Shown: in pieces, positions 8,270 through 63,618 of the stretch
How the letters are laid out: each line of letters opens with the position of its first letter
How positions within the stretch are numbered: the first letter of the stretch is position 1
Assembly (NCBI GenBank): GCA_963846445.1
Contig: CAWJWM010000014.1
Location: forward strand, 21,304 to 85,303
Length of the DNA stretch: 64,000 nucleotides
Source: an uncultured Verrucomicrobiae bacterium
Lineage (GTDB): Bacteria; Verrucomicrobiota; Verrucomicrobiia; Limisphaerales; J093
Direction of reading: 5' to 3'
Position numbers and translations under genes: made by a program
The notes under the pieces: model-generated
What the model saw: only the letters and a program-made list of their open reading frames with translations
Told to the model about the DNA's origin: nothing
The model's database searches: none

Positions 8270-8270
8270 C

Positions 8271-9264: not shown

Positions 9265-9267
9265 TCT

Positions 9268-9332: not shown

Positions 9333-9334
9333 TT

Positions 9335-9399: not shown

Positions 9400-9424
9400 A
9401 AGCGTCGAGTCTGATTCGCGTCCA

Positions 9425-13469: not shown

Positions 13470-13602
13470 GTGCATCTGGTTGTTGTCGGTGTTCTGTCGC
13501 CCGGTGAGGGCACCGGGCCTACAACGGATGGAGATTGCCGGTGTAGGCCGCGTGCCCCCACGCGGCGCATACTCGATTCCCACCGACAACCTCCAGATGC
13601 AC
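13470..13602. repeat. 133-nt element closed by a 22-nt imperfect inverted repeat and containing a module G copy (13500-13569)
   Basis: GTGCATCTGGTTGTTGTCGGTG (13470-13491) pairs with CACCGACAACCTCCAGATGCAC (13581-13602). Lies between the CLF-like and ACP genes. Confidence 0.7.
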
Positions 13603-18261: not shown

Positions 18262-21200
18262 ATGACTACCTCCACAACACACCCTCTGTTGCAGGGGCAT
18301 GTAGGCCGCGTGCCGTCACGCCACGCGATTTCTGCCGCTGGGCATGGCGCCGCACTCTTGGCCTTGTGGCTAACGGCCATCGCCTTCGCAGGCGATCCCG
18401 CCCCAGCGCCCGCCCCGGCCTCGGCGCAGACGCCTGCAGCCACGAGCGTCGCGGACCCGCCGACCATCGTCGAAGTCAACAAGATCGCCCTCGACGGCCA
18501 ACTCGACGCCGAGAAGGCCCGTCTCGTGATCGAGGCGGACCTGCGCGGGCTCACGCCGGCGCGTGACAAATCCATCTACAGCGCAGTCGTTCGCCAGGTC
18601 ATCGGTGTGGCGCGCGAGAAGCTCACCCACGCCATTTCAGTGCAAATCGAGGCCGTCCAGGGTGAATTGAAAGAGGTTGTCCTCCCCTTGTCCGGGGTGG
18701 GCGAGATCAAGCAGGTCACGAGCGATCAGCTTGAAGACTGGAGCGTCCGGCAGGCGCCCGGCGGCGCCCGCGCCCTCGTCCTGCGCGTGAAGAAGGCGGA
18801 GCAGCCGGTCAAGTCGCTCGCCGTCCAGATCGCCGCTGTAACGCCGTTGGGCGATCTCCCGCAAACGGTCACGCCGCTGGCTCTGGTTGGGGAACCGGCG
18901 TCTCTGAGCCATGGCTACGTGCGCATCGACACCCCGTCCGAACTCGCAATTCAACTCGGCAATCCCACCGGCGTGGCGCCGCTCGAATTGGGATTCCTGC
19001 CTGAGGATCTGCGCCCGACCGCGACGCCGGGCGGTCCCGAGGCTCTCGCGTTCCGCTTTCACGGCACAGCGTACGCCTTGCCCCTGACGCTCGCGGCGGC
19101 CGACCCGGAGGCATCCCGTGTCGTGCTCCATCAGTTTCGTTTGCGGGGCCGGCTCAGCGGCGATCAAGCGGCTTTTACATTGAACGCGGTCGCCCGGGTC
19201 AAGAATCCGAAAGGCGGCTCGCTGGCCCTGCTGTGGGGGCGTGCCGCGCTCACCGAAGTCAACTCGACAACCAACTGGCAATGGAAACTCGAAGGAGACA
19301 AGTATGTGGCGCGGTTCGACCGTGCGGGGGTGTACCCGCTTCAGCTCAAGTTCAACGCCGCGGTGCGCCAGACCAACGGCTGGAACGAGATCGATTTCGT
19401 CGTCGCACCCGGCGGGCCGGCCCCGGTGACGTTCGAGGGCTTGAAAGCCGACACCCAGTTCCGGTTCACCGACGCTGCCCGGCCCGAACTCGCGGGTGAT
19501 GAGTTTGTGAGTTTCCTTCCGCCGACCGGCCAGGTGCGGCTTGGGTGGAAAGAAGCCCGGCCCGAAACCGAGGGGACACTGTTCTACGCCGCGGAGGCAT
19601 GGTCGCAGATCGCGATCAGCCCCGGCCTGATGCGGCAGACTGCGCTGCTGGATTTCAAGGTGATGCAGGGCGAACTCAACCGCGTCGCGCTGCGCCTGCG
19701 GGGCGCCGGCGAGGTCACGCGCGTGCAAGGACCAGCCGTGCTGGCCTGGGCCGTCGAGGCGGTTCCCGAGACTGCCGAACGCCGTTTGACAGTGCAATTG
19801 AACCAGGCCCAGAAGGATCAATTCTCGTTTCAGGTCCAGTTGCAGACGCCGCTGGGCGCGTTCCCCCAAGCCGTTGACGCGATGCAGGTGCTGCCCGAGG
19901 GCACCACCCGGTTCGGCGGCTACTTCCGCGTCGTCAACGAAGGCGCCGTGCGCCTCGAAGTGGTGCAGGCCAGCGGCCTGTCCCAGATTTCGCCCGAGCA
20001 ATTTCCGCAGACCGAGGCCACCAAGGCGCTTCTGTCGGAGCAGACCACACAGATGTTTGCCTACCGTTTTTCGGGGGGCGCGTTCGAGTTGCGGGTGCAG
20101 GCGGACAACATCCTGCCCGAGTTGGCGGTGTCGGCGGTGCTGTCGTATCACCTCGGCGAGACCGAGTTGGCGATCGACGCCGAGTTCGAAGTGGACGTGC
20201 GCGAGGCCCCGTTGCGCGAGATGGTGCTGCGTGTCCCAAAGGGCTATGCGGTGGCGCGTCTGAACGCGCCTGGTCTTAGCGACTATTTCCCCACTGAGAG
20301 CGCCGACCAGCCCGACGCCCAAATCCGGCTGGTGTACGGCAGCCCCGTTTCGGGCCGACAGGCTGTGCAGTTGCGTCTCGAACGCAACCAGCCCCTGGCC
20401 GAATCCGCCTGGCGCCTGCCCCGGATCGACGTCGTGAAAGCGAAATCGGTGCGCGGACACGTGGGCGCCACCGCGGACGCCGGCTTTCGCCTGACGCCCG
20501 GCGCGACCCAAGGGCTGACCGAGATCGCCGGGGCGTTTTTTCCAAGAAAGCTGGCCAACATTCAGGCTGCTTTCCGCGTGAGCGACGCGGCGTGGCAGGC
20601 GACGCTGAACGTCGAGCGACTGCCGCAGTCGATCCAGGCCGATGTGTTCCACCTGTTTTCGATTGGCGAGGGCATTGCCTACGGCAGCAGCATCATCAAT
20701 TACGTCGTTTCCGGCGCGCCGATCGCGACTTTCCGGATCGAGTTGTCGGGGGAGTACTTCAACCCCGAGTTCACCGGCAAGGATGTGCGGAGCTGGCAGA
20801 AGACCGATGGTGGCTACCAGGTTCAATTGCACACGCCGGTCGCCGGAGCGTACACGTTGCTGGCCACCTACGAGCGTCCGTTCAAGGCCCAGGGCGAAAC
20901 CCTCACCTTCGCCGGCGCGCGCCCGCTCGACGCGCAGTCGGAACAGGGCCACACGATTGTCGTGAGCGCCTACCAGTTCCAGGTGGAGCCGGTGAACCTC
21001 TCGAGTTCGCTGCTGCCGCTCGAAACGGGCGAAGTGCCCCCCGAATACCGCCTGTTTTTCGACGCGCCGATCCTCGCCGCGTACCGCTACACCGCGCGCC
21101 CCTTCAACCTCCAGCTCGAGTTGAAGCCGCTGGCCCAAGGCGAGACCATCCGCCAGGTCGTGGACCGCGCATCCCTCACCACACGGATCTCGGACGAGGG

Positions 21201-32529: not shown

Positions 32530-32715
32530 GGAAGACCACGGATCCCCCGGCCAAACCGAATCTGGACGGGGCGGTTTTCGGGTTGAATCGCCAGCGCGGG
32601 GACGCAAGATGGACCGGTGAACGCTCCGCACGCGCACCCCCCGGTGGGTGGATGGCCAGGGCTCCTGGATCAGCCGAGGCCGCGCCCCGGGGCGATGAGC
32701 GGTCCTCCTGCACTT

Positions 32716-34071
32716 ATGAACGCATCCGAAACTCTCACGCGCCGGTCTTTCCTGGAGAAGGCCGCGACACTCTCGGCCATTGGATTCGCCGCTCCGGCGA
32801 TCGAGGCGGCGGACGCGCCGCGCCCGGCTCGGCGGATCGGCCCCAACGACCGAATCCACCTTGGCCTGTTGGGTTGCGGCGGCATGGGCCGGGCCAATCT
32901 CAACGAGTGCGCGAAGCATGCGGACGTTGTCGTCACGGCGGCATGCGACGTCTGGCAAGCGCGGCGCGACGCCGTCTGCGCGCAGTTCAAGGACACCTGC
33001 AAGCCGTATCGCGACTATCGCGAGATGTTGGCCCAGCCGGATCTGGATGCCGTGATTATTGCCACGCCGCCGCATTGGCACACGCTCACCGCGATCGAGG
33101 CCTGCGCAGCGGGGAAGGATATCTATCTGCAGAAGCCGATGACGCTTCATCTGGGCGAAAGCCTGGCGGTGCGCAACGCCGTCAAGCGTCACGGACGCAT
33201 CAGTCAGATCGGCACCCAAATCCACGCCGGCGACAACTACCGCCGGGTGGTCGAGTTTGTCCGGTCGGGCAAACTCGGCCCGATCGGCGTGGCACGCACC
33301 TTCAACGTCATGAACCAGGGGCCGGAGGGAGTCGGCACCAGTCCCGTCACCACGCCGCCGGAGGGGATGGACTGGGAGTTCTGGTGCGGCCCGGCGCCAC
33401 GGCGCCCCTTCCATCCGATTCTCGCCGAGAACGCCTACAACCACGGATCCTGGATGGACTACAGCGGCGGGTGGACGCCGGGCATGGCCCCCCACATCAT
33501 CGACCTCCCGGTATGGGCGCTCGATTTGGGGTACCCGACCGTCACCAGCGCGGCGGGCGGACGCTACATTGTCCAGGACGACGGAGACGCCTACGACCAT
33601 CACGAAGTGTTGTGGCAGTATCCCAAGTTCACCCTCACCTGGATGTCGTCTTTGACCAACAGCTACGACTTCACGATGCGGGGCGATGCCGAACCCGAGC
33701 GGCGTTTGGGCATCTATTTCCAGGGCACCAACGCCACGCTTTACGCCAATTACGGAATGTACCGGCTCCTGGCGGAGGGCAAGCGTCTCGAAAGCAAGGA
33801 ACCGCCGCCGGCGACCATCCCGCCCTCGCCCGGGCACGAGCGCGAATGGCTCGACTGCATCAAATCGCGCCAGCAGCCGGGTTGCAGTGTGTTCTATCAC
33901 GTCAAAGTCGACGTGCCGATTGTCCTGAGTCTGCTCTCGTTGAAGTTGGGCCGAGCGATCCGCTTCGACCCGGCCACGGAGCGGATTGTGGGCGACACGG
34001 AAGCCGCGCGACTGGCGGTCCCCGAGTATCGTGCGCCCTGGAAATTCCCGCGTGAGTATCTCGACGCTTAG
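32716..34071 (+). CDS. Gfo/Idh/MocA family oxidoreductase with twin-arginine signal
   Basis: MNASETLTRRSFLEKAA, Rossmann motif LGLLGCGGMGRANL, IATPPHWH. An alternative ATG is at 32695. Confidence 0.85.
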   Translation: MNASETLTRRSFLEKAATLSAIGFAAPAIEAADAPRPARRIGPNDRIHLGLLGCGGMGRANLNECAKHADVVVTAACDVWQARRDAVCAQFKDTCKPYRDYREMLAQPDLDAVIIATPPHWHTLTAIEACAAGKDIYLQKPMTLHLGESLAVRNAVKRHGRISQIGTQIHAGDNYRRVVEFVRSGKLGPIGVARTFNVMNQGPEGVGTSPVTTPPEGMDWEFWCGPAPRRPFHPILAENAYNHGSWMDYSGGWTPGMAPHIIDLPVWALDLGYPTVTSAAGGRYIVQDDGDAYDHHEVLWQYPKFTLTWMSSLTNSYDFTMRGDAEPERRLGIYFQGTNATLYANYGMYRLLAEGKRLESKEPPPATIPPSPGHEREWLDCIKSRQQPGCSVFYHVKVDVPIVLSLLSLKLGRAIRFDPATERIVGDTEAARLAVPEYRAPWKFPREYLDA

Positions 34072-34165
34072 CCCGCATTTCTCACCAACTTTCGATGTCA
34101 TCTGACCGGTCACCGTCCCATTTCACTTCAAATGCGGGCTGTCAGAAACCCGTGCCCCAAACAGA
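34070..34165 (+). repeat. diverged partial copy of module D (5' hairpin plus start of long stem)
   Basis: AGCCCGCATTTCTCACCA...AAATGCGGGCTGTCAGAAACCCGTGCCCC compared with AGCCCGGATTTCTCACCA...GAAATCCGGGCTGTGGCAAAACCGCGCCC. It starts in the stop codon of the preceding gene. Confidence 0.6.
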
Positions 34166-34284
34166 TGGACCCAATCTCGATCCACAGTGTGTCCGCGTGC
34201 CCGGGTCGCCCAAGCGGCTGGGGAGCGTCCCGGCGTTGATGAACCGATGAGCCAATTCTGCTTGCTGGGCGCGGGTTTCATCAG

Positions 34285-34349
34285 ACCCGGACATCTCACC
34301 CGCGGACTGTCAGGTATGCCGCGACCGCCCCTCTGGTGAGATTTCCGGG
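34285..34349 (-). repeat. module H (65-nt long hairpin, CCCGGAAATCTCACC...GGTGAGATNTCCGGG)
   Basis: Its reverse complement is ~90 percent identical by eye to 38361-38424. Confidence 0.75.
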
Positions 34350-34359
34350 TGAGCGAGGT

Positions 34360-36494
34360 TCATTTCGCATCGAGGTTGATCTCTCCTGCCCAGTCGGGCG
34401 GCGGCGGGTTCTCCTGCAGGACTCGAATTTGACCCAGGTAGAACTGGGAGGGGCCGTCTGTCCCCCGCAGTCGACAGACTTCCTGGAAAGCCGCCTCCGC
34501 CACCCCCCAGGCGCGCCGCCGAAAATGGTGCAGACCGAGGGCGAACTGGTCCCGCCAGGACGCCGAAGCCGGATCGGACGGCGGCGCGAGTTCGAGAAGT
34601 TCGCACACTTCGACAACGCGGTCGAAGCCTTTGAACCGGAACTGGCCCACAGACCGGCTGACAACGTGCGGTTCGATTTGGTGAGAGAAATCGCGCGAGG
34701 CGAGGATGGACGTGCCCAGCCGTTGGTTGAGGCCCTCGAGACGTGAGGCCAGGTTCACGGCATCGCCGATGGCCGTGTACTGGAAGCGGTCCGGGCTCCC
34801 CAGGTTGCCCACGCAGACAGGCCCGGTATGCAGCCCGATCCGGGTCCGCAGAGGAAGTTCGGACGAGGTCTCGTCCAGCACCAGCGAACACTGGTTCAAT
34901 AGGAAAGCCGCCTGGCACGCCCGCGCGACGTGATCGTCGTTGTTCCTGGGGCGCGTTCCAAAGCGCGAAAATGGCGTCGCCGATCAGACTCACCACCGTG
35001 CCATCCTGCTCGTGGATACAGGCAATGGTCCGGGCGTAGTACTGGTTGAGCCAGTCCAGCAGACCGGCCGCGTCCATCCGTTCCGCACGCTTCGAGAAAT
35101 TGGCGATATCACTGTAGAGGATGCTGACCGTCTGCTCGCGCCCACCGGGGTGGAGCAACTCGGGGTGTTTGAGGAGGCGACCGACCTGTTTGGGCGAGAG
35201 GTAGAGCGCGAGCGATCGTTCGAGAACGCCGCTTTGGACTCGGGCCTTGGTTGCGTGAAACACAACTCCCCAGACCAGACCGGCAGGAATCTGCACGGCC
35301 AAAATGATGGCCCAGGGGAACCAGAGGCGCAGGCCGGTCTGCAGCGCGCACGCCCCCGCAAAGACCGCCACGGCAGATCCGACCGCCACCGCCAGTCCGA
35401 CCAGCGGATGCCAGCGCGTCAGGAGCACCCCGGCCGCCACACCGCTAAGGACAATCGCCAGCAAAGTCGGGATCATCGGTACCTCCCGCAGCCATCGACC
35501 CTCGATCAAATTAGCGCACGCGGTGGCATGGACCTCCACGCCGTCGAATCTCCGCCCGCCTGCGTACGGGCTGCCGGAACGTGTCGGCGTCGGGCGGGGC
35601 GAAGGCCGTCCCGGTAAACGACACCCCGCGGCGCTCGCCAATGAAGACAATGCGGTTGCTGAAGAACCCGTCGCAGGCGTTGCTCAAGACGCGCCAATAG
35701 GGCACAGGCTCGATCGTGCCGGGCGGACCGTAGTAATTCAGATGCCAACTTGTCGGCGGCGCGTTCGACCGCGCATTGAGGCCGGCACCGCCCGCCGCCG
35801 CCGCAACCCACGCCAGCGTGGGATAATTCGTTTGCGCCTCGTTCCGCCCCGCCGCATGGCCATCCGGAATCCATGGCAACAGCCGACGCACCGTCGTGTC
35901 TGGGTCCTTGAGGAGTTCGATCGCGCCGTGCCCGAGCGCCGCTGAAAGGAGCATGGGCTGCGGCAGGCGCAACAACGGCCGCGGCGGTTCGCTGCTCTCG
36001 CTTTGGAAGCGCAGACTGCTTCCAAGGACCACCCCGCCGGCGTCGCGGATGGCCGACGCCAGCGGCGTATAATCGACGCTGCGCTGCTCCTGGAAGAGAA
36101 TATCGAACACGACCAACCGGGCGCCGGCTCCGCGCAACCGCTCCACTACGCGCGCGTGGAGCGCTGGATCCCACGGCATGCCGTAGTCTTGTTGGTGGCG
36201 TCGATGCGAGTCATCGTCCAGGGCGACAATGACCACGTCTTCGGGCGCCGTTGGCAACCGAACGGAGCAGGCGAAGGGCAGATTGTAACTGACTCGGCGC
36301 AGGCCGGCCCCGATATAGGGATTGAGGAACACAAGGCCTGCCACGACGGTGAGCAGGCTGCCCACCAGAGCCCCGAAACCGTTCCGCAGCACTCGATCTG
36401 GCAGTCTCACAGCGCGTCCATCGACCGAGCCCGGGCCGGCATCTTCCCGCTCCTGCGTCGCGGGAAGATGCAGCGCCGCTGCGCGGCGCAACAA
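34360..36494 (-). pseudogene. CHASE2 sensor domain - TM - class III adenylate/guanylate cyclase; two apparent +1 frameshifts near 35573 and 34941; start 36494 or GTG 36410
   Basis: CHASE2-like N-terminus (VVIVALDDDS..VVFDILF..IVFIGE), then SPYAGGRRFDGVEVHATACANLIEG and TMs. Cyclase motifs ILYSDIANFS, IGDAIFALWNAP, RIGLHTGPVCVGNLGS, YTAIGDAVNLASRLE are spread over three frames. Confidence 0.8.
36441..36489 (-). repeat. module E (inverted), with compensatory change in hairpin 2 (TCTTCCCGC..GCGGGAAGA)
   Basis: ATCTTCCCGCTCCTGCGTCGCGGGAAGATGCAGCGCCGCTGCGCGGCGC. Confidence 0.75.
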
Positions 36495-36537
36495 CTTGAC
36501 TCATTGACTACAGATTTCATCGAGGAAGTCACTCTAG
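36478..36537 (-). repeat. module X
   Basis: GCTGCGCGGCGCAACAACTTGACTCATTGACTACAGATTTCATCGAGGAAGTCACTCTAG. Confidence 0.8.
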
Positions 36538-36772
36538 CCCGGATTTCTCACCACCGGGAAGATGACACGGAAATCCGGGCTGTGGCAAAACCGCGCCCGG
36601 ACAGGGGAAAACAAGGGTCAGAGCATCCCCGAAGCCGCCCTGGCTCGGCGACACTCTGTTGCCCGGTTCCATCCATCCACTCGGGCGCGGTTTTGCTTTT
36701 CTAGCGCGCATGGCTGCCTCTCCGGATGACATCTGCTTCGCGTTGCACAAAACCTGGTAGAAATGCGCGCTA
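36536..36772 (+). repeat. module D copy 1: ~237-nt structured element (candidate ncRNA or structured MITE)
   Basis: About 88 percent identical by eye to 44826-44993 over the first ~168 nt. Contains a 12-bp hairpin, a 15-bp long-range stem and a 10-bp 3' hairpin. Confidence 0.75.
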
Positions 36773-36857
36773 GCGAGGCGCGCCTCAGACCAAATCCCAA
36801 TCTTCGACATCATGAACTGCCCTTTCGCTTTCCTGTCCTTCTCTCCCGCGCCTCGCT
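36772..36857 (+). repeat. module A, full 86-nt copy with 11-nt terminal inverted repeats AGCGAGGCGCG / CGCGCCTCGCT
   Basis: Aligns with 63289-63374 (reverse), 44745-44825, 9335-9399 (reverse) and 40689-40745. Confidence 0.85.
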
Positions 36858-36861
36858 CCTT

Positions 36862-36934
36862 AGAATCCTTGACCCCTTCAACGCAGCATAGAAACTTGAC
36901 TTGTCTGCAACACATTTGACCGGTCAAGGATTCT
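36862..36934 (-). repeat. module B: 73-nt hairpin with perfect 13-bp stem AGAATCCTTGACC / GGTCAAGGATTCT
   Basis: The loop is the reverse complement (~83 percent identity by eye) of the loop at 63225-63271. Confidence 0.85.
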
Positions 36935-36963
36935 CGTGAGATGCGCCCCCATTGCCTTTCTCT

Positions 36964-38302
36964 CTAATTCAGTTCGGGCTCGTTGTTGGCGATGATCGCC
37001 TTGTCGCCGATTTCGTTGGTGATTTCCACGCCGCGCACGCCGTTGTTCTCGGTGACGATGGCGTGCTGGAGGCCTTTCTTCAGCGCGATGCTGGGTTCGT
37101 CGGTGCCGAAGCTGCAGCCGCGCACCTGGAGTTTGCCGCCGTCGGCCTCGACGAGCGCGACACCCGGGTTCTTCGCGCGCCCGGTGCTGCTGAGGTAGCA
37201 GTCCGAGAGCGACACGAAGCTCTTGCTGTGCGAGACGACGCATTGGCGGTTCGGCCCCCAGAACGCGCAGTTCACCAGCCGCACCGAGCCGCGACAGGTG
37301 TTCTCGACCAGCACCGGAATGCGCGTGTCGCCGTGCATGCAGACGAACTGGCCGTTCGAGATCAGCAGGCCCATCGGCTGGATGTCCTCGACCTTCACGC
37401 ACACCTGCGCCTCGTCGGCGCCGATGCCGGAGAACTGACCGTTGGCCGCGCCCGCCTGGGTCTTGATGAACCGGTAGCCGATGTTCACCGGGAAAGACGA
37501 AGGTGTTGTTGACGTATTCCCAGTCGGTGCGGCCGAAGATGAACGCCTCGCAGTTCCTCCACATGAACTCGTGCACCGGCTTCCAGTCGCCGCCAACCTG
37601 CCGCGGCCGACCACCAGTGGCAGTGGAACTGGACGTTCTCGATGCGGCCGATGTCGGTGCATGCGTCCACGAAGATGCCCCGGCGCAACACGCAGCCGTA
37701 GACGCTGCGGATGCGGTGGCGCACGTTGCCTTCCGGGCCGATGCGGATGCCGTTGTAAGTGTTGATGAGCGTGACGTTCTCGACCGTGTTGTCGTGGCCT
37801 TGCAGGTGGAAGGTCCAGGCGTAGGGGTGAATGTTGGTGGTCTGCTGCTCCGGATAGAAGACCGTCAGGCCGCGCACCGCGGAGGAATGGCCCATCTCGA
37901 ACAGCGCCGGGCCGTCCTCGTTGTCGCGTCCGCCGGTGGCCAGGATGATCGAGCCTTTCAGCGGTTCGCTCCAGACCGGCGACTCCATCACGCCTTGCAG
38001 GGTCACGCCGGGCGGGATCGCGCAGGCTGCCGGCGACCAGGTAGCGCGCGGGCGGCAGCAGCACCTCGCCGCCGGCCTGGGCGGCTTGGTCCAAGGCCCG
38101 CTGGAGAGCAGCGGTGTCATCGGCGATGCCGTCAGCCCGGACGCCCGGGAAACCCGCGGCTGCGGATGCTAAAGATGGCAGGTCGGCGTCTGCTGCCCGG
38201 GTTGTGGGGACGAGACAGGAGCGACCAGGCTGCCAGCGCTGTCACCAGCACGTTCGTGGGAGTCGAGGGGACAGAAGAGATGCGCTTGGATGCGTGTATC
38301 AT
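36964..38302 (-). pseudogene. secreted right-handed beta-helix (pectate-lyase fold, GH28-related) protein; four apparent +1 frameshifts near 38200, 38022, 37593 and 37490
   Basis: The path runs MIHASKRISS..LVTALAAWSLL, then FPGVRADGIADDTAALQRALDQAAQAGGEVLLPPARYLVAGSL, then AIPPGVTLQGV...NVTLINTYNGIRIG...HCHWW, then GDWKPVHEFMWRNCEAFIFGRTDWEYVNNTFVFP, then VNIGYRFIKT...IANNEPELN. The frame steps 1>0>2>1>0. Confidence 0.75.
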
Positions 38303-38359
38303 GGATCGGAGTCTGGATCGGCCCGGAGATGCTCGCAAACCCGAAAACAGAGGGCCATA

Positions 38360-38426
38360 ACCCGGAAATCTCACCGGTGGGGCGGTCGCGGCATGCCTGA
38401 CAGTCAGCGGGTGCGATTTCCGGGTC
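38360..38426 (+). repeat. module H (long hairpin)
   Basis: CCCGGAAATCTCACCGGTGGGGCGGTCGCGGCATGCCTGACAGTCAGCGGGTGCGATTTCCGGG. Confidence 0.75.
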
Positions 38427-38616
38427 ACAAATACAGTGAGAGGTGGTTTTTCTCGACCAGCGCAATCACCGAAATGCCGTGCCCATGAGCGCTGGTCATT
38501 CCTCCAAGCGTCCTTCGGATTGCCGCGTGTGGTAGCATGGCCTCGTCATGGACAAGATTCAGAACACGATTGACGAAGCCTATTTTTCGCTGGCCAACGA
38601 GGCCATTCCACTCCGG

Positions 38617-40691
38617 CTACTGCATCGCTTCCAAACAGTCCACCGGCAGCGTGGTCCCGCTCAGGCCCGTCACCACCAGGGCATGGAAACCGTCGCCGAT
38701 GCGCTCCGCTCGAGCACCGGCGCCGAAGCCGCTGCCGGACCGGACAGGTCGATCTCGCCCAAAGGAACGCCGTCCAGCTTGACGGCGACACGCCCGAACT
38801 CCGGTCCCCTCGGGAGCCAGAGGCGAAAGCCGCTGCCGCGGATGTTCCACTTCACCCGCTCGCGCGGGTTCTTGCAGAGCGCCCCGGTCCCAAAGCGCCA
38901 TTGGGAGCCGTCGGTCTTCTCGTAGGCGCCCTCGGCAACGCCCGCACCCGAGATCGCCTCGCTCGATAGCCACGTATGGACCGCAGGCTGCGGCGATCCC
39001 GTGACCTCCAGTTTGTCGACCGTCAGGTGCGTCCCCGGCTCGAGCAACAGCCCGATCGCCCCGGTCTCAGACGGGACGGCCCCCGACCAAACCGGCTGGC
39101 CCGAGATCGTCACAGCGGTCCGGTCCGCAGCGACCTCGATTCTGACGGCGCGCCGATCCTCAGGTGCAAGCGCGCCCTCAGCCACGACGGCGGCGTCGGG
39201 CGTCTTGCCTGCCTCGACCAGTCGCCACCGATCTCGAGTGAGCTCGAGGGCACGGTGGCGCGTCCAGCAGAGCGGGTGCGGTCGTCCGTCAGCGCGTCCT
39301 TCGGCGCCCAGCGGCATCTGACACGCCCACGCCAGGCGCGCCGTGCCGGAGCGCAGGACAACCTCCGCTGCCAGATCGAACGCGGCGTACGCGACGCGGG
39401 TGAGGCTGAGGGCGCGCCCGCCGTGCGCCGTGATGGTGAGATCGGACTTCCGCAACGGCTGCGTCCACGGACGCGACGCGGAGCCGATGGTTCCGACGCC
39501 GCCCTCGATGTGACGAGACGGGTAGAGCACGCGCATCGTGCCGTCGGTGTCGATGCGCGCGGCCAGCGTTTGGCCCCAAATCCCGTAGCCCTCGTGAGGC
39601 ACAGGCTCTGCGTGCCAGACGGACCCGTGCTGCCACAACTCCCATGCGTCGGGATCGAGCGCATGTTCGATCGGCGCGCGGAAGATGGCCTGGAAGTTCC
39701 GATTCAGCCCCACCGACGTACGCGGGTCGTAGACATAACCGGCGTGGGCGAACGCCGGAAAAGCCTCGATAGGCGACGGATAGTAGCGATCCCCTTCGAG
39801 ATCGGTGATGACGACCGGTTTGGACCATGTCCCGAGCGGGTCTGTGGCCCTCATGCCGATCTGGCCCCACGCGTAGTGCGCGCCCGAGTCCAGGTCGGAG
39901 ATCACAAGCCAGTCATTGGCGCGGCGGACCATCGAGCTGGCGTAGACGCGGCGATAGCGTGAGCCGGGCCCGGCCAGCCTCTGCCACTCCGAAGTCCGCA
40001 GGATAGGGCGCGGGCTCCGGTGGAACGGGCCCTCGGGCTTGTCGGCCCAGGCGTAGGCCACCCCGCTGTCGGCTCCACCGCTGGGAGTCGACGCATTGGC
40101 CCAGGTGGTGTTGGACGTGCACCAGTCGTAGGCCATGTGATACCGGTCATCGTGGTACACCACGCACACGTCCGGCGCGATGGAGGCGGGGTAGGCGTCG
40201 CCTTCGAACCGGAAGCCTGAATCGTCGAAAACGGGTCCCACCTGTTTCCAGGTCTGACCCTGATCGACCGAGCGGAAGACCCTGCAGTGCGTGGGCTCAC
40301 CCTGCGGCACAAGGGCGTAGCCTTCGTAGTAGAAGCCGACGTAGGCGTACCAGCGGTTCGACACCGGATCGATCAGCAACGACACGTTGACGGGCCATTG
40401 GAACGGCGCGGCTCCCTTGACGAAGGGGTTGCCATCCGCCCGCCGGAACGAATCGAACGAAGGGTCGCCCAGGATCGGGTGCCGCATCCAGGCGTCGGCG
40501 TTCGCGGCCTGCGCGAAGTCGAGGGCGGTCGTTTGCATCGGCGGCTGCTTCCACAGAGGCGGCCACTGCGGCACGACGACGCCGGTCTTCGTCCCCGCGC
40601 CCGTCGCTGGCAGCACCGCCGCCGCGCAGACCGCGGCAGCCAGGATGCCGAGCGATGCGCGCCTCCAGCCAACCCAGAATCTCGTCGTCAT
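38617..40691 (-). pseudogene. large secreted protein of unknown function (possible beta-propeller glycosidase-like N-terminus, lectin-like C-terminus); probable 1-nt deletion-type frameshift near 38705; GTG 40706 is an alternative start
   Basis: ORF 38670..40706 with signal peptide ASLGILAAAVCAAAVLPATG. The tail ..APVLER continues more plausibly in another frame as IGDGFHALVVTGLSGTTLPVDCLEAMQ, ending at 38617. The 5' UTR and first codons derive from module A. Confidence 0.6.
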
Positions 40692-40745
40692 GAAGAAGCC
40701 TTTCACTGTCTCGCCCCTGTCTCCCGCGCCTCGCTCTCTGGAGTG
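40689..40745 (+). repeat. module A fragment serving as 5' UTR and start codon of the minus-strand gene 38617..40691
   Basis: The minus strand reads AGCGAGGCGCGGGAGACAGGGGCGAGACAGTGAAAGGCTTCTTCATGACGACGAGATTCTGGG. This aligns with module A AGCGAGGCGCGGGAGAGAAGGACAGGAAAGCGAAAGGGCAGTTCATGATGTCGAAGATTGGG. Confidence 0.7.
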
Positions 40746-40747
40746 AC

Positions 40748-40811
40748 CCTCTTTTGAGATCTGTTGTCAATGAGTCAAGCTTTTGCGCTGCGCCGCGGCG
40801 CCCGTTACGGG
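40748..40811 (+). repeat. module X (its TTGAC-containing strand faces gene 38617..40691)
   Basis: CTGGAGTGACCCTCTTTTGAGATCTGTTGTCAATGAGTCAAGCTTTTGCGCTGCGCCGCGGCGC. Confidence 0.8.
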
Positions 40812-40961
40812 GTTCGGGGTCGGACCGCCGGAACCTGTTCTGGTTTGAGCCCGCACTTCAGACCACGCTTGCCGGGGGGCGGTCCAATTGGCAACGTCAA
40901 GCTTCGTGAAGCCGAACCACAAGTCTTTCGTTTCCCCCGGCTTTTTCCAGGCACAGGAGCT

Positions 40962-42932
40962 ATGAGCACGCATGCCATTGTTGTATGGGCAGGGTTCTTG
41001 GTGGGCGCGTCCATCGCCGAGGCGCAACTGGCGCCGCCCATTGTGAACCCGACCGGGCAGTCTCTCGACTGGGGGGACTACCGGATCGAGGTGAACCAGT
41101 ACGGCGATCTGGGCCGGAACTGGCCCACGCCCGGCGAGTTTTGGAAAGGCTACGAACGGCTGAAACACAAGGCCAAGGCCAATCCTGCGCCGCCCAACAC
41201 ACTGCGCGCCCTTCTGCTTGTCATTCCGCGCGTCCAGGCGACCGCGGTCAAGCAGGTCGACGGCAAGGAGGTCGTCGTCGGACGGAAGTCGACCGAGATG
41301 ACCTCGGCCGAGATCAAGTGGAATCTCGAACAATGGCGCGCGTTCGAGGACATGGTCTACGTGTTCTCCGCCGGCAATGCCTGGCTGCGCACGGACATCA
41401 AGGTCATCGACGAACCGCTCGAGGTGGTGACGGACGAGAACTGGGAGTTTTGGGCTGGCCAGCAGCGGAAGCTGCTCGAGAAGTATCTCCCCTTCGAGCG
41501 GGGCGATTACCAGAGCTACAACTGCATTTACAATTCAAAAGGCCTGAACGCCAACCCGCACGGCGGCACCATCGGCGCCGTCGGCGGCATCAAGGGCTGC
41601 GGCACCTCTGACAACGCGTTCTACGGCGGCGGCCCCTCCATTGACGAACGAAGCGGGTACGTCGCTCTGCACGAGTGGCTCAATCAGCAGTGCTCTGCCA
41701 CCAGCAACATGATGCCTTACCCCGACGGCGAGGCCCTCTGGAACAACTACGTCCTCCACCTGATGGGTTATCGCGAAGACACGCAGCTCAATGCCTGGCC
41801 CTGGATCAGCCACCGTCGCGACATCATGACGCAGATCATCCGCCCCACGATGTGGCGTCGGTGGAGCGCGCTGGATCCGTACGTCTCCCTCCCCCTCGGG
41901 CGATGGCTGCTGTTTGCCGGCCGCGGTCCGGAGGCCGCCCGCGCGGTCACCCAAGCGCCGGACGCAGACGGCGAACTCATCGAGCGCGATCTGGATCGCT
42001 ACGGCAAGATCAGCCTCACCGTTCAGAGCGGAGCCGAGGCGCCCGACATGCCCGCCGGCACCCTTTACTTGCGCACTTACGTCGAGGCCGACCAGGATCA
42101 GGAAGTCCGTCTGTGGACCGGTGCGGATGAACGGTTTCAGGTCTGGCTCAACGGCGTGATGATCCGCGACGGTTGGGGTTGGAACTCCTTCGACGACGAC
42201 GGCGCGCTGGTGGAAAAGGTCGCCTATCCCACACTCGAGCGGGGCATCAACACACTCGTCCTGGTCTTGCCGAACAAGGACGAGAAGGCGGAGTTCCGCC
42301 TGCGCTTCTGCCAAACCGACGGCTCGGGCCGTCCGCCGACCGGCGTGCGCGCGTTCCCTCGGCTCTCCCCAGGGCAGCGACCCGTCGCGCTGGAGGACCC
42401 GGTGCGCCACGATTTCAAGAACCCGACGTTCTTCAAGTGGGCGGAGGTCAAGGACGATCCCTGGCTCCAGTTGCCGCGGTTGGATGAGGCCGCCTTGCGG
42501 GATCTGACGGGGATTGAATCGCTGACCATCAAGACCGACGGCACGCCCTGGACCGCCCCCGACGGGACAGAGTACAACCCGCCAGGTCAACATCTCTTCC
42601 TCGATGTCCCGGAGACGGCGGTCGCGTCCCCCTGGGTTCGCGAGCCCCAGGAGAACAGCGCCGCGCTGAACAACGATCTGGACTTCAATTGGAAATCGAT
42701 GGCGTGGCTGCGGCTCGAGGATCGGATGGAACCCAGAGATTTGGTGCTCGTCCGGTTCGACATCGCGGAGCCGCTGTTGCACCTGCTGATGACGCGGGGC
42801 CGACCGGCGCACGAGAGCCTGGTGGGTTGGCTCCTGGTGAACCACAAACTGGCCTACGTGACTCTGGTGAACCTGGACTTCGATCGAGGACCCCGGCGAG
42901 CAGTCGAACTGCTGGCGCAGCAGCCGAGATAG
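40962..42932 (+). CDS. secreted hypothetical protein (656 aa)
   Basis: ATG preceded by AGGAGC. Signal peptide MSTHAIVVWAGFLVGASIAEA. No family recognised. Confidence 0.7.
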   Translation: MSTHAIVVWAGFLVGASIAEAQLAPPIVNPTGQSLDWGDYRIEVNQYGDLGRNWPTPGEFWKGYERLKHKAKANPAPPNTLRALLLVIPRVQATAVKQVDGKEVVVGRKSTEMTSAEIKWNLEQWRAFEDMVYVFSAGNAWLRTDIKVIDEPLEVVTDENWEFWAGQQRKLLEKYLPFERGDYQSYNCIYNSKGLNANPHGGTIGAVGGIKGCGTSDNAFYGGGPSIDERSGYVALHEWLNQQCSATSNMMPYPDGEALWNNYVLHLMGYREDTQLNAWPWISHRRDIMTQIIRPTMWRRWSALDPYVSLPLGRWLLFAGRGPEAARAVTQAPDADGELIERDLDRYGKISLTVQSGAEAPDMPAGTLYLRTYVEADQDQEVRLWTGADERFQVWLNGVMIRDGWGWNSFDDDGALVEKVAYPTLERGINTLVLVLPNKDEKAEFRLRFCQTDGSGRPPTGVRAFPRLSPGQRPVALEDPVRHDFKNPTFFKWAEVKDDPWLQLPRLDEAALRDLTGIESLTIKTDGTPWTAPDGTEYNPPGQHLFLDVPETAVASPWVREPQENSAALNNDLDFNWKSMAWLRLEDRMEPRDLVLVRFDIAEPLLHLLMTRGRPAHESLVGWLLVNHKLAYVTLVNLDFDRGPRRAVELLAQQPR

Positions 42933-42959
42933 CGACATGGTCCGGACGGAGTGCGGGGG

Positions 42960-44765
42960 CTATTCGGTCGCGATCCAGCGCGTGTAGGCACGTTCGCCCA
43001 GATACTCGTAACCGCGGTTCTCGTCCGAGGTGCCGGCGAGCAATGCGTGCATGAGACCGTTGCGCTCGACGAGGACCGTGTGGAGGATTCTGCGCTCCGG
43101 GTTTTCTTGCAGGAGGAATTGGACGCGCCCTCCCAGAGCAGAGTGGAGGTGGAGACCGGCGGCGTTGGTCCGACTGCTGATCGCGAAGGACGCGCGGAGT
43201 GCGGCGAGCATCGCGTGGCTGCGTCCCCATGTGCCTCCCTCGGGGCTGACGAAGGGTTTCCCGTCGAGCAGCGCAACGGCGTCGTTGTAGGCGAAGACGC
43301 AGAGACACCGCCGATCGCCGGTGTCGAGCCATCGGGCGAGCTTTGTGGCGTGGCCGCGCGCGGCGTCGAAGGCGTAGGTGCTGTCGAGAAACGCGATTCG
43401 CACGACGTCGCTGGGGATCTCATCGAGGGCGTTGAGGTAGCCGAAAGTCAGGCTTCCACCGCCGCTGTGGCCGGTGAGGACCAGCTCGAGTTGGTGATTC
43501 GGAAGAACTCGCTTCACGCGGGCGATCAGGTCCGGGATGGCGTGATCGCCGTGCTGATGGCGCCAGGCAGGCCAGCTTCTGGTATTGGCTTCGAGGTAAG
43601 CGATGACCACTGTGTGGTTCGTAGCGAGCGCACGCAGGAACCGTACTTGCGCGCCGATGTGCTGAGCGTCGAAGCGCCAGTCGTCGCCGGGCCGGGGCGC
43701 GCGTCCGATGGTTTGGGCCGTGGTATTGCCGTTGGGCAGGGCGTACAGGACCAGCAGGACCGGTTTATCTGGGGGGAAGTCCTCCACACCTGGAGCGTTG
43801 AGATGCACTGTCACGCCGGGATCGAGCGCGACATCGGCGGTCTGTTCGCCGAAGGCGCCGGTGGGGTTGAATTCCACTGCGGTTGTGGGCGAGCGATGGT
43901 CTCGATCGGGCAGCGGTGCCGGCGGATTGGTCGCATAGCGCGATTGGGCGAGCGCGCCTTCATCGCTCAACAGGCCGGCCAGGCTGGGGTCGGCGAGGAC
44001 CTGGGCCACGGACGCAGTCGAGCCGTTGACTTGCAGCGTTTGCTGCACGAGCCGCACACCGTGGCTGTAATCCACCCAGTTGACGGTGTGGCCAGAGTAG
44101 AGCGGCTGGATCGCGACTCCGTTGGTTTGATGCCAGCCGTAGATGGCGACCTTGTGTGGCGTCCGAGCGAGTCCCGCGGAAACCACGACATCCTTCTTGT
44201 GGCCTGCGACGAGGGAACCCAGCGGCTGGGTTGCCAGCCAGGCCAGCCGCTGGGTTCGAACGACATCGTTGTGTGCGACGAACACGGGCACGGTTGTCAT
44301 GGCTGGACTGGGAGGAATCGGGGCCGGCGGGAGTTGGACTTTCGCCGCGGCGTGGATCGCATCTGTCATCTTCCGCGTGGGGAGGCAACAGCCGAGTTGG
44401 TCAACGAGGTGTTGGGCGGTCATGGGGGTCAGCGGCACGAGAAGCGCGTCGTCGTTCGAGCCCACGCAGAGGTATTCCGGAGCGGCAAAGAACGTGGCAC
44501 GATTCGTCCGCCCGTCGGCGACGTTCGTGACCGTGACGGGGCAGAATCGCCGCAGGAAGTCAGGCACATTGCCAGAGAGGACCTGGCCCAGGATCGCCTG
44601 TTCCCGTTGCGCAGGTGCCAGCGGCTCGATGGAGCTGGCGAAGGCGTGTCCGGAAGGGGCGTGAAGGGCGCGCTCGGGCAGGACAAGCGTCTGCGCCAGG
44701 GCCAGCGGACGGACACAGAAAACGAGGGTGCCGAGCGCGAACCAAGCGAGGCGCGCCTCGACCAA
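42960..44765 (-). CDS. secreted hypothetical protein with C-terminal alpha/beta-hydrolase-like region (GHSGGG elbow)
   Basis: 601-aa ORF with signal LAWFALGTLVFCVRPLALA. The TTG start at 44765 lies inside a module A copy. The ATGATG at 44785 could be the real start if one base is missing near 44755. Confidence 0.7.
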   Translation of the reverse strand: MVEARLAWFALGTLVFCVRPLALAQTLVLPERALHAPSGHAFASSIEPLAPAQREQAILGQVLSGNVPDFLRRFCPVTVTNVADGRTNRATFFAAPEYLCVGSNDDALLVPLTPMTAQHLVDQLGCCLPTRKMTDAIHAAAKVQLPPAPIPPSPAMTTVPVFVAHNDVVRTQRLAWLATQPLGSLVAGHKKDVVVSAGLARTPHKVAIYGWHQTNGVAIQPLYSGHTVNWVDYSHGVRLVQQTLQVNGSTASVAQVLADPSLAGLLSDEGALAQSRYATNPPAPLPDRDHRSPTTAVEFNPTGAFGEQTADVALDPGVTVHLNAPGVEDFPPDKPVLLVLYALPNGNTTAQTIGRAPRPGDDWRFDAQHIGAQVRFLRALATNHTVVIAYLEANTRSWPAWRHQHGDHAIPDLIARVKRVLPNHQLELVLTGHSGGGSLTFGYLNALDEIPSDVVRIAFLDSTYAFDAARGHATKLARWLDTGDRRCLCVFAYNDAVALLDGKPFVSPEGGTWGRSHAMLAALRASFAISSRTNAAGLHLHSALGGRVQFLLQENPERRILHTVLVERNGLMHALLAGTSDENRGYEYLGERAYTRWIATE

Positions 44766-44825
44766 AACCCAATCTTCGACATCATGAACCGCCCTTTCGT
44801 TTTCCTGCCCTCCTCGCGCCTCGCC
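44745..44825 (+). repeat. module A (81 nt) overlapping the 5' end of gene 42960..44765
   Basis: AGCGAGGCGCGCCTCGACCAAAACCCAATCTTCGACATCATGAACCGCCCTTTCGTTTTCCTGCCCTCCTCGCGCCTCGCC. Confidence 0.8.
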
Positions 44826-45060
44826 AGCCCGGATTTCTCACCACGGGGAAGATGACAACGAAATCCGGGCTGTGGCAAAACCGCGCCGCACAGGGGAAAA
44901 TGAGGTTCAGAGCGCTCCCGAATCCTCCCGGGTGCAGCGACACTCTGTTGCCCAGTTCCCTCCATCCACTCGGGCGCGGTTTTGCTTTTCTAACCTGCAT
45001 GTTGACTTCCTTTGAGGACTCCGGCTTCGCGGTGGAAAAAGTGGTGAGAAATGCAGGCTA
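44826..45060 (+). repeat. module D copy 2 (~235 nt)
   Basis: See copy 1. The 3' hairpin is CCTGCAT...ATGCAGG here, versus GCGCGCAT...ATGCGCGC in copy 1. Confidence 0.75.
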
Positions 45061-45789
45061 GAACAGCGTCGGAAAGACCTGGATCAGGTCCTCGATGTTC
45101 GTCGCGGTCGCGAGGAGAAAGCGCGCCTCGAACTCGGCGTGGAAATCGCGCTCGAGGCCGGCGGTCTCCGGCGGAGCGCCGGGACGGTTCAGCACGGCGG
45201 CGACGATCTTGCCGGAGGCGAACGCGGCGACGATCGCATTCGCGTCGCCGACCAGACGGAGGTCCGGAAGCAGGAGGGCGATTCGCGGCGTGGGCCGGCG
45301 CCAGGATTCGAGGGCCTGCACCCCCGCGGGCAGACCGATCACGCTCACCCAAAGACCGGCGTCCGGGTGCTTCGACGCCAGTGCGTCCCAGGCGCCTTCC
45401 ACCGTCATGAAACTCAGCGGCGTGGTCACGTCCGGCGGCAGCGGGACGGACGCCGGGTTCTGTCGCGCAGCGGGGCTCAGTTCGGGGTAATCGACGCCGG
45501 CCAGGCGGATCCGATCGCCCCAACCGTCCTTCAACCCCCGGATGGCGGCCTCCTCGAAGGCGCGGACTTCCGGGGGTTGGCCAGGCATCCGGCCGAAGGG
45601 ATTGGCGACGATGAGCGCCGTTTGGCCGGGGGTCTGTTGGGCCACGTATTCGCCCAGGACGCGCAAGGCAATTTCGCGCCGGTCCAGCGCGCGCCCGCGC
45701 ACGACCCGGTCCTGGGTGCGGAACATGCGCCAACCCATGACGGCGGCGGCAACGAGAAGAACCGCGACAAGAACAGGTTTAGCCTTCAT
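45058..45789 (-). CDS. membrane-anchored periplasmic hypothetical protein (possibly substrate-binding-like)
   Basis: ATG at 45789 with N-terminal anchor MKAKPVLVAVLLVAAAVMGW. 243 aa. Confidence 0.6.
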   Translation of the reverse strand: MKAKPVLVAVLLVAAAVMGWRMFRTQDRVVRGRALDRREIALRVLGEYVAQQTPGQTALIVANPFGRMPGQPPEVRAFEEAAIRGLKDGWGDRIRLAGVDYPELSPAARQNPASVPLPPDVTTPLSFMTVEGAWDALASKHPDAGLWVSVIGLPAGVQALESWRRPTPRIALLLPDLRLVGDANAIVAAFASGKIVAAVLNRPGAPPETAGLERDFHAEFEARFLLATATNIEDLIQVFPTLF

Positions 45790-45834
45790 GGAACCGGCTG
45801 ACGGAGTATGGGAAATGCCTTTTCGGGAATGCTG

Positions 45835-45916
45835 AGCGAGGCTTCGCCTCAGACCGAGGTGGAGCGTGAACAACTCGTCTGCGCTGGGCGGCCACCACGA
45901 TCACCGGCGTCCGACG
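45835..45916 (+). repeat. module F (3' terminus missing)
   Basis: AGCGAGGCTTCGCCTCAGACCGAGGTGGAGCGTGAACAACTCGTCTGCGCTGGGCGGCCACCACGATCACCGGCGTCCGACG. Confidence 0.75.
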
Positions 45917-46026
45917 GGAGCAGGATGGTCTGCCTGCCGAAGCCTCCGCCGTCGCACGTGTTTCGGCGGACAGGCGGGCGCGGGCAGGGGGTGAGGGGGC
46001 AGTTCATGGGGCGCGCGTGATCCGTT

Positions 46027-63213: not shown

Positions 63214-63284
63214 AATCCTTGACCTGTCAAATGTGTTGTAGATAAGTCAAGTTGTTGTGCTGCGTTAAAAGGGTCAAGGATTCT
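63212..63284 (+). repeat. module B: 73-nt hairpin with perfect 13-bp stem, starting inside the stop codon of the outer-membrane factor gene
   Basis: AGAATCCTTGACC (63212-63224) pairs with GGTCAAGGATTCT (63272-63284). Confidence 0.85.
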
Positions 63285-63288
63285 CAGG

Positions 63289-63374
63289 AGCGAGGCGCGG
63301 GAGACAAGGGCAGGAAAACAAAAGGGCGGTCCATGATGTCGAAGATTGGGGTTTGGTCTGAGGCGCGCCTCGCT
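63289..63374 (-). repeat. module A, full 86-nt copy (inverted)
   Basis: AGCGAGGCGCGGGAGACAAGGGCAGGAAAACAAAAGGGCGGTCCATGATGTCGAAGATTGGGGTTTGGTCTGAGGCGCGCCTCGCT. Confidence 0.85.
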
Positions 63375-63432
63375 AGAGTGACTCTCTTTTTGAAATCCGC
63401 TGCAAATGAGTCACGTTTTTGCGCCGCGCAGC
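63373..63432 (+). repeat. module X
   Basis: CTAGAGTGACTCTCTTTTTGAAATCCGCTGCAAATGAGTCACGTTTTTGCGCCGCGCAGC. Confidence 0.8.
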
Positions 63433-63559
63433 CTCGCTCAACCCGCAAAGCTAAAGCGCCAGAGGACTGGCGCAGTCTCCCGCAGCCGCGGGACTGGCGC
63501 CTTTTCGGACGTCTCCGAACCGCGCGAAGCGTTTTGGAGTGCGGCAGTCTTCTGCCGCT

Positions 63560-63618
63560 CTGAGACCCTCGCGAACGATCTGGCAAGACGCCTCGCCGGT
63601 CTGAGGCGCAGCCTCGCT
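63560..63618 (-). repeat. module F' (short F variant) containing the stop codon of the last gene
   Basis: The reverse complement reads TAGCGAGGCTGCGCCTCAGACCGGCGAGGCGTCTTGCCAGATCGTTCGCGAGGGTCTCAG, which aligns with 14001-14056. Confidence 0.75.

Follow-up and report, generated by a model that had tools for sequence, protein, structure and literature searches.

A probable new family of three-hairpin miniature inverted-repeat elements with YTAR target duplications in uncultured Verrucomicrobiota

The repeat family designated D (module D) was studied in a window of 64,000 nucleotides from an uncultured Verrucomicrobiae bacterium of the Limisphaerales (assembly GCA_963846445.1, contig CAWJWM010000014.1, positions 21,304 to 85,303), to which all coordinates given without a locus number refer. 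From two copies in the window, copy 1 (36536-36772) and copy 2 (44826-45060), it had been predicted that D is a structured intergenic element, either a new non-coding RNA (ncRNA) or a structured MITE (miniature inverted-repeat transposable element). Based on the ends, the flanks and the distribution of its copies, D is probably a new family of MITEs, with terminal inverted repeats (TIRs) of 16 nt, a YTAR duplication and an IS5-like target. The MITE reading was supported by the presence of D at many loci, by its sharp ends and TIRs, and by a target duplication which is apparent from comparison with empty sites.

The family was collected by searching a collection of species-representative genomes for exact matches to a 20-mer that crosses from hairpin 1 into the central stem; pieces of approximately 8 kb around the matches were numbered L005, L006 and so on. 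At least 89 loci were identified in about six Verrucomicrobiota metagenome-assembled genomes (MAGs). Among the 80 matches listed, 23 were in JAXGQW01 (AnMBR.bin335), 21 in CAYPUR01, 20 in JAKLFY01 (RA.bin27), 11 in DAOOQY01, 3 in MWFF01 (ADurb.Bin006), and one each in JAKQDD01 and a Planctomycetota MAG, so that three MAGs have 20 copies or more each. The match in the "Planctomycetota" MAG (L005) was rejected as a member of the family, being a chance match within the coding sequence of a P-loop GTPase. A profile constructed from 45 full copies recovered about 70 full-length copies and many fragments in the 8-kb pieces, often several per piece, and a further 16 loci came from metagenomes that were scanned with a subfamily pattern. 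The hosts belong to a clade of uncultured Verrucomicrobiota that come from anaerobic digesters and activated sludge and carry the source labels Verrucomicrobiia or Limisphaerales. The genome of the window lies outside the MAGs matched, the best flank identity being about 84%; the closest homologue of the window proteins (71%) was found among Verrucomicrobiia/Limisphaerales MAGs.

The boundaries of the copies are sharp across the family. The element is approximately 232 nt of non-coding DNA, the body of which begins with CCCGGAT and ends with ATGCNNG, and it is bordered by a tetranucleotide on each side (L4 on the left, R4 on the right), which is CTAG in most copies. When the left end was compared with the reverse complement of the right end in 59 copies, positions 1-16 matched in 54-97% of them, with the exception of position 5 (G on the left, C on the right). 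Since the inverted match extends over 16 nt and the direct-orientation similarity of the two ends over 7 nt only, these CCCGGATNTCTCACC-like termini are true inverted repeats. The claim that D lies in no credible open reading frame (ORF) held for the family as a whole, no frame being consistently open across the 59 copies and the subfamilies differing by 1-nt insertions or deletions.

In the window both copies were found by reading of the sequence where they had been placed, on the + strand. The body of copy 1 is 232 nt long (36538-36769, +; CCCGGATTTC to GAAATGCGCG) and was recognized by the 45-copy profile with an nhmmer E value of 2e-63; its TIRs are at approximately 36538-36553 and 36754-36769 (+). 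It is flanked on the left by CTAG at 36534-36537 (+), which runs directly into CCCGG, and on the right by CTAG at 36770-36773 (+). Copy 2 has a body of 230 nt (44828-45057, +; E = 1.5e-63) with TIRs CCCGGATTTCTCACCAC and CCTGCATTTCTCACCAC that match at 15 of 17 positions. Its right flank is CTAG (45058-45061, +), and its left flank reads CCAG (44824-44827, +), which is probably a decayed CTAG. Neither the flanking CTAG ends nor the inverted termini had been noticed in the original prediction; also missed were a third copy at 34067-34350 (-) and a solo unit at 38358-38427, both described below.

The direct repeat which flanks D is a YTAR tetranucleotide, mostly CTAG and otherwise TTAG or CTAA, and at three unoccupied sites it is present only once. 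Two of these, window 63373 and L085, are paralogous to an occupied site, and the third, the queG/peptidase junction, is orthologous to one. The site of copy 1 reads ...GTCACT-CTAG-[D]-CTAG-CGAGGCGCGCC..., and if the adjoining repeat, module X, is written as X, this is X-CTAG-[D]-CTAG-CGAGG as compared with X-CTAG-CGAGG in the empty state. By alignment, the unoccupied paralogue was located at 63310-63445 (-), with its single CTAG at 63373-63376; this site and L085 read ...GAGAGTCACT-CTAG-CGAGGCGCGCCTCAGACC... without interruption. At the conserved junction between queG and a converging peptidase M14 gene, ...CTAA GGGACGAT was found once in L094, L097, L098 and L099. The empty junction in L094 is ...GCACAGACC CTAA GGGACGAT, and the occupied one in L006 is ...GCACAGACC CTAA [D] CTAA GGGACGAT, with the stops of queG and of the peptidase gene both kept. 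An orthologous empty site for copy 2 was not found, the synteny of the relatives being different there.

Asymmetric tetranucleotides are repeated directly and not inverted: CTAA/CTAA was observed four times (in three subfamilies), TTAG/TTAG 11 times and CTGG/CTGG once, and the flanks of L086, a copy of the diverged subfamily D2, are also CTAA/CTAA. The nearest relatives of the CTAA/CTAA copies start after CTAG, with G at the fourth position; since all four copies have CTAA on both sides, the duplication includes the fourth base. A duplication of TA only, as in MITEs of the IS630/Tc1-mariner type, was ruled out on the basis of the A found at the fourth position on both sides of the CTAA-target copies.

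The genomic context of 52 full copies was determined with gene calls from a simple filter on GC content at third codon positions (GC3). Insertions were frequent on C-TAG or C-TAA stops, where the duplication lets the gene retain its stop. In 18 of the 52, about a third, a converging gene has its stop codon overlapped by the right end of D; copy 2 is among them, CTA at 45058-45060 being the TAG stop codon of the minus-strand gene 45058-45873. The left end overlaps the stop of a co-directional gene in 7 of the 52. Read in the orientation of D, TTAG..TTAG corresponds to the C-TAA stop of a converging gene, and CTAA..CTAA to the C-TAA stop of a co-directional gene (queG in L006). Convergent genes surround 16 copies, divergent genes 10 and co-directional genes 26.

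Module X had been described as lying directly upstream of copy 1. It is present there, but copy 1 was merely inserted into another repeat. An X-like left flank was found in only about 4 of 70 copies, and the uninterrupted X-CTAG paralogues at 63310-63445 (-) and in L085 show the association to be incidental. Module X itself is a composite repeat, joined via a single CTAG to "CGAGGCGCGCCTCAGACCAAATCCCAATCTTCGACATCATGAAC...", with several TTGAC motifs and GC-rich palindromes; it was located at 36436-36533 plus 36774-36945, at 63201-63438 (-), and at 7649-7758, 9197-9400 and 40738-40803. In L094 (approximately 3626-3895) the CTAA(G) of the queG/peptidase junction is also the insertion site of a second MITE, of about 265 nt, with the ends GGTCTGTGCAAAAATTA.../...TAATTTTTGCACAGACC. 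L097 is empty for this second MITE, which often adjoins D (right flank in L076, left flanks in L006 and L101). In L097 and L098 (approximately 3540-3630) the last eight or so codons of the 357-aa QueG and the following spacer consist of a reversed hairpin-1-type unit and a reversed remnant of a hairpin-3 loop, so that repeat units have been absorbed into the queG coding sequence. The QueG of L006 has 349 aa, and its C-terminal end is a remnant of the second MITE.

CTAG is rare in the window, with 11 observed occurrences against 203 expected (observed/expected 0.05). CTAA (0.13), TTAG (0.12) and TTAA (0.16) are 6- to 8-fold depleted, and GATC and TCGA exceed expectation 2- to 3-fold. Of the 11 CTAGs, seven are at the boundaries of repeat modules, four of these in D copies. 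The nested, mosaic intergenic regions are explained by the rare CTAG targets being supplied by the elements themselves: each insertion would add CTAG sites to a CTAG-poor genome and so attract further insertions, building up a mosaic of repeat modules. One intergenic spot (window 63204-63621, corresponding to L037 299-536) holds a D copy at the orthologous site in RA.bin27 and 417 nt of other repeat modules in the window, different elements having filled it independently.

Parts of D are exchanged as modules. Hairpin 3 recombines freely with the rest of the element, the nearest relatives by hairpin 3 differing from those by hairpin 1 and the centre, and hairpin 3 was also found alone, as was hairpin 1 with the centre. 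Truncated and nested copies are common. A single locus represented in two MAGs (L024 849-1090 and L041 5701-5944) has flanks that are 84-96% identical and the same hairpin 1, with 3' hairpins of entirely different type (GCGCGC versus CCCGC/CTAA), which is the replacement of a module at a fixed site. In L042 an iron-containing alcohol-dehydrogenase-like gene looks as if it sits between the parts of one D element: the 5' part of a D copy (1616-1717) extends exactly to its ATG, and a solo hairpin-3 unit (2853-2927) begins on its TAG stop.

All three helices that had been predicted for the window copies were recovered. Hairpin 1 of copy 1 (36536-36581, +) folds into a stem of 12-13 bp with a loop of about 20 nt, and the 12-bp pairing claimed for it, AGCCCGGATTTC/GAAATCCGGGCT, is formed by 36536-36547 with 36570-36581. 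The central domain (36584-36696, +) folds into a long irregular hairpin. Its long-range outer stem, GGCAAAACCGCGCC(CG)/(CG)GGCGCGGTTTTGC (36584-36599 with 36682-36696), was confirmed in position, with a length of 14-17 bp instead of exactly the 15 bp proposed. Hairpin 3 (36701-36773, +), of the GCGCGC type, is formed by CTAGCGCGCAT/ATGCGCGCTAG (36701-36711 with 36763-36773), its 5' foot being an internal CTAG and its 3' foot the flanking CTAG. Copy 2 has a 3' hairpin of the CCTGC type, with CTAA (44990-44993) as the internal foot. The two compensated base pairs reported between these 3' hairpins are real (G-C to C-G, and C-G to T-A); one further change in the foot of copy 2 is uncompensated (CTAA versus CTAG). 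Across the family, hairpins 1 and 3 are each formed by a terminal repeat and its own inverted subterminal partner.

The similarity of about 88% estimated by eye proved accurate for hairpin 1 and the central domain, over which 146 of 165 aligned positions of copies 1 and 2 are identical (88.5%); over the 3' hairpin the value is 46 of 73 (63%). The two copies were the top direct-repeat families (D1 and D9) in a repeat search of the window, and the 26-mers conserved between them have exactly two occurrences there, with 0.00 expected. Minimum free energies were -112 kcal/mol for copy 1 and -97 kcal/mol for copy 2 (z = -5.9 and -3.0 against shuffles), and folding was as good on the reverse strand (z = -5.2 and -3.7, respectively).

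Covariation was assessed in an alignment of 59 full copies with a hand-specified three-helix structure and 500 shuffles. Standard pairs made up 92% of cells, and 14 pairs with 112 cells were changed on both sides (five of the pairs in hairpin 1 and seven in hairpin 3); none of the 500 shuffles reached these values, and pairing fell to 29-44% when the 3' partners were slid as a control. One pair of hairpin 1 occurs in four types (UA 31, AU 22, GC 5 and CG 1), and the stem of hairpin 3 comes in three or more variants, including CCCGC, GCGCGC (19 of 59 copies) and CCTGC (at least 12 copies). RNAalifold on a MAFFT alignment returned the central stem and hairpin 3 only, so that the detection of hairpin 1 depended on the hand-specified structure. 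The outer stem of the centre, 14-17 bp, is nearly invariant in the sampled set, which partly reflects the search pattern, in which its 5' arm was fixed; in subfamily D2 the stem (GAAACCCGCGCCC/GGGCGCGGGTTTC) is two compensated pairs away from that of the main family. Within the central domain the alignment was too poor for covariation counting and no column-consistent set of inner pairs could be derived, an irregular long hairpin being found in every subfamily.

The difference between copies 1 and 2 had been taken as a sign of selection on structure. The stems do covary across the family, and structure is conserved as had been supposed, but what is seen between the window copies is not the evolution in place of one RNA, since each carries a widely shared variant of the 3' hairpin (GCGCGC and CCTGC, respectively). 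A mobile element whose DNA contains inverted repeats would show an equal covariation result. Complementarity of the stems is maintained more strictly than the likeness of the termini, which suggests that a folded form matters, either for the element or for the host; the relevant molecule could be single-stranded DNA or RNA in read-through transcripts.

It is quite unlikely that D is instead a functional structured RNA family, either a multi-copy ncRNA gene or a cis-acting RNA such as a mobile guide-type RNA or a 3' untranslated region stabiliser or terminator adopted by the host, in which the covariation would record selection on RNA folding. The three covarying helices and folding energies far below those of shuffles are what such an RNA would show. 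Many copies lie directly at gene 3' ends, TTTTCT follows the central stem on the + strand in many copies, and the depletion of sense copies between co-directional genes (see below) would fit a polar terminator-like effect. Against this, Rfam gave no match at the gathering score in the whole window and only chance-level ones at E values up to 10 in 36400-37000. A sigma-70-like promoter or intrinsic-terminator consensus was not found in or beside either copy, a single chance-level terminator-like site being present inside copy 1 on the minus strand. That D had not been recognized as a tRNA or tmRNA agrees with a scan of 34000-46000 in which neither was found. Nor did the stems show a preferred strand: once three fixed wobble positions were set aside, G·U on the + strand was about as frequent as A·C, which is G·U on the - strand, and the two strands fold equally well. 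Nothing points to a discrete transcript. The sharp ends, terminal repeats, duplications and empty sites show that the copies originate by transposition, truncated and nested copies are common, and the gene context is variable and mostly antisense to the neighbours. The ncRNA reading was therefore not supported, the copies having target-site duplications and spreading like a non-autonomous transposon, a pattern which the original prediction had itself set against that reading.

If D is a MITE of this kind, it would be moved by a DDE transposase supplied in trans, with a staggered cut of 3 or 4 nt at YTAR like that of IS5-type elements; the duplication motif of IS5 is 5'-YTAR-3' (PMC5009759). 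Its three hairpins would derive from an inverted subterminal copy of each terminal repeat and from a centre which is itself a long inverted repeat. They might provide subterminal binding sites for the transposase or belong to a single-stranded DNA intermediate; they might also protect the 3' ends of read-through transcripts, as REP (repetitive extragenic palindromic) sequences do, or act as a polar terminator in the sense orientation. Given the TTTTCT after the central stem, the last of these roles would explain the orientation bias of D between co-directional genes.

Several candidates for the partner were considered. A five-member ORF family located beside some copies was rejected as a transposase, its products being prepilin-type N-terminal (DUF1559-like) proteins. 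Paralogous genes for these proteins are present at L018, L051, L065 and L084 with a D copy immediately upstream in four of five cases, which may be due to chance, since these bacteria have very many members of the family. Two X modules enclose 1.6 kb (7623-9355) in which the ORF is glycosyltransferase-like and not a transposase. The one insertion sequence (IS) found, of 1.9 kb in L056 (3733-5621), encodes a 560-aa DDE_Tnp_1 transposase; it splits a D copy at the linker preceding hairpin 3, where the 6 nt TTTCTA are duplicated. It was rejected as the partner on the basis of its different ends (CGGAGATTCCAGTGAG/CTTAATGGAAGTTCCG) and its 6-nt duplication.

A number of observations weigh against the MITE interpretation. 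Neither an autonomous element with D ends nor a multi-copy transposase was found in 0.86 Mb of related DNA, which consists of fragmented MAGs; a search for the terminal-repeat motif outside the known copies gave no suitable pair, and clustering of 996 ORFs gave no multi-copy transposase. Complementarity within the hairpins is stricter than the likeness between the two termini. Between co-directional genes D is antisense in 22 cases and sense in 4, a count that rests on crude gene calls, and transposition of double-stranded DNA accounts for this bias only by invoking selection. Every empty site has C before TAG or TAA, and duplications of 3 nt and 4 nt are inseparable there; the first flank base is correlated between the two sides (T/T in 10 of 13 versus 7 of 40), and the same base also pairs with the internal foot. 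Lastly, this internal foot, on the 5' side of hairpin 3 and designated I4, is complementary to R4, which is expected to be target DNA. The combination CTAA..TTAG (I4..R4) was present in 13 of 13 genome copies and in 8 of 9 new metagenome copies, and the other pairs were TTAG..CTAA (L028), CCAG..CTGG (L069) and CTGG..CCAG (L067 and L050). The CTAA state of I4 is largely inherited within a clade.

Complementarity of foot and flank is what a single-strand DNA element would predict, derived from REP/REPIN or from IS200/IS605 and moved by a Y1 HUH transposase (RAYT or TnpA), with the end hairpins read on one strand and the tetranucleotide target chosen by base pairing to a guide inside the element, for which the 5' foot of hairpin 3 would serve. 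The foot is complementary to the flank and is inherited, and guide-target pairing is predicted by the HUH mechanism; there is a hairpin at each end after CTAG, recalling the GTAG before REP stems; the stems covary within each hairpin; and a strong orientation bias is expected of insertion into one replication strand. Repeats of the GTAG-plus-hairpin form also occur in the window at 9123, 13542 and 18300. Such a mechanism is nevertheless unlikely. The 16-nt inverted termini run past the stems into the loops, and IS200/IS605 ends lack these. CTAA targets are flanked by CTAA on both sides in four of four copies, from three subfamilies, that have CTAG (in one case TTAG) as the internal foot; the predicted class with CTAA on the left and CTAG on the right was never seen, and D2 has CTAA..CTAA flanks without a complementary internal foot. 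A RAYT or TnpA gene was not noticed beside any copy, no search for a Y1 transposase having been made. Site-specific recombination, in which a circle with one YTAR core between abutted ends recombines with an identical target core and leaves inherited direct core repeats on both sides, is highly improbable. The flanks look partly inherited in sublineages (the TTAG clade; CTGG in L069, L072 and L055; CTAA in L006 and L073), and abutted ends would make a 12+4+12 palindromic site. Near-identical GCGCGC copies (96-100%), in contrast, differ in their flanks (TTAG/TTAG, CTAG/CTAG and CTAA/CTAA), which fits fresh duplications and not an inherited core. Moreover, no recombinase gene was associated with any copy and the circular junction was not observed.

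The pairing of I4 with R4 is not predicted by a plain cut-and-paste model. It is possible that only those copies survive whose target completes the stem, that the stem is corrected after insertion, or that the element biases its own choice of target; the classes TTAG/CTAG/CTAG and CTAG/CTAA/TTAG look like corrections in either direction. There is a small chance that I4 helps to set the site or the orientation of insertion so that the target tetranucleotide completes the 3' hairpin, which could come about through element-guided target choice in a transposon with TIRs and a duplication, or through hairpin-templated correction or selection after insertion. If this were true, the element would have as one of its working parts a folded form, of DNA or RNA, that includes host bases, often those of a gene's stop codon, and the mechanism would stand between those of classic DDE MITEs and of guide-using single-strand transposons.

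Among known systems, D resembles the IS5-family MITEs in being small, non-coding and present in high copy number, with TIRs and mainly intergenic insertions. A 4-nt YTAR duplication, preferably CTAG, is found in IS5 itself, and the CTAG, TTAG and CTAA repeats of D fit this motif (PMC5009759). D differs in that no IS5-type partner with D ends was found in the 0.86 Mb, its duplication could be 3 nt rather than 4, it folds into three hairpins and not one, and its duplicated target forms the base of the 3' hairpin. With REP, BIME and REPIN sequences (RAYT) it shares hairpin units with a conserved foot tetranucleotide, mosaics of alternating orientation, a location at gene 3' ends and an orientation bias; D is larger, its 16-nt TIRs extend past the stems, and it has a target duplication relative to empty sites, none of which is seen in the REP type. 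The IS200/IS605-derived palindrome-associated elements (PATEs) likewise have subterminal hairpins at both ends and a 4-nt foot complementary to the adjoining cleavage or target tetranucleotide, but they are without TIRs and duplication, and the CTAA/CTAA flanks of D copies with a CTAG foot argue against this class.

The Correia elements of Neisseria and the ERIC/RU-type MITEs of enterobacteria are intergenic inverted-repeat elements of 100-250 nt which are co-transcribed with their neighbours, form stable hairpins and, as in D, comprise subfamilies of recombining modules. Correia elements have a TA duplication, 26-nt terminal repeats and an IHF site. None of these is known to have sequence similarity to D, which differs from them in its preference for the CTAG or CTAA of stop codons and in duplicating at least the TAR trinucleotide. 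D is thus an ordinary kind of element with some odd hairpin features.

Further members of the family and other repeats were identified in the window. The third, diverged copy, at 34067-34350 (-), was recognized by sequence and fold (nhmmer E = 3e-6) and belongs to subfamily D2, of about 285 nt. It has the flanks CTCA and CTAA and the central stem GAAACCCGCGCCC/GGGGCACGGGTTTC, and at its right end it overlaps a TAG stop, that of the + strand gene 32617-34071; full-length D2 relatives were found at L086 7650-7934 and L088 6646-6927. The solo hairpin unit at 38358-38427 (+), detected as inverted repeat I3, is of the D2 hairpin-1 type by sequence (ACCCGGAAATC...GATTTCCGGGT). The GTAG-plus-hairpin repeats mentioned above (9123-9174, 13542-13593 and 18300-18351) are REP-like, with TGTAG followed by the hairpin GCCGCGTG/CACGCGGC, and from their form a RAYT-type system may also be present in this genome. 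To the right of copy 1, at 36964-38120 (-), two long ORFs overlap in different frames (36964-38094 and 37485-38120), both with coding-like GC3; they could represent a frameshifted gene or an assembly error.

If the coupling between I4 and the target were a real mechanism, it would bear on the choice of targets by transposons. For the annotation of Limisphaerales-type MAGs, in which D is present in dozens of copies per genome, these sequences should be masked as mobile repeats and not treated as ncRNA genes or as extensions of ORFs. Genes such as queG already take C-terminal codons and stops from some of the copies. The family also explains the mosaic intergenic modules of the genome of the window, in which CTAG is 20-fold depleted and CTAG-targeting elements pile into one another, and this pile-up helps to explain the fragmentation of such MAGs.

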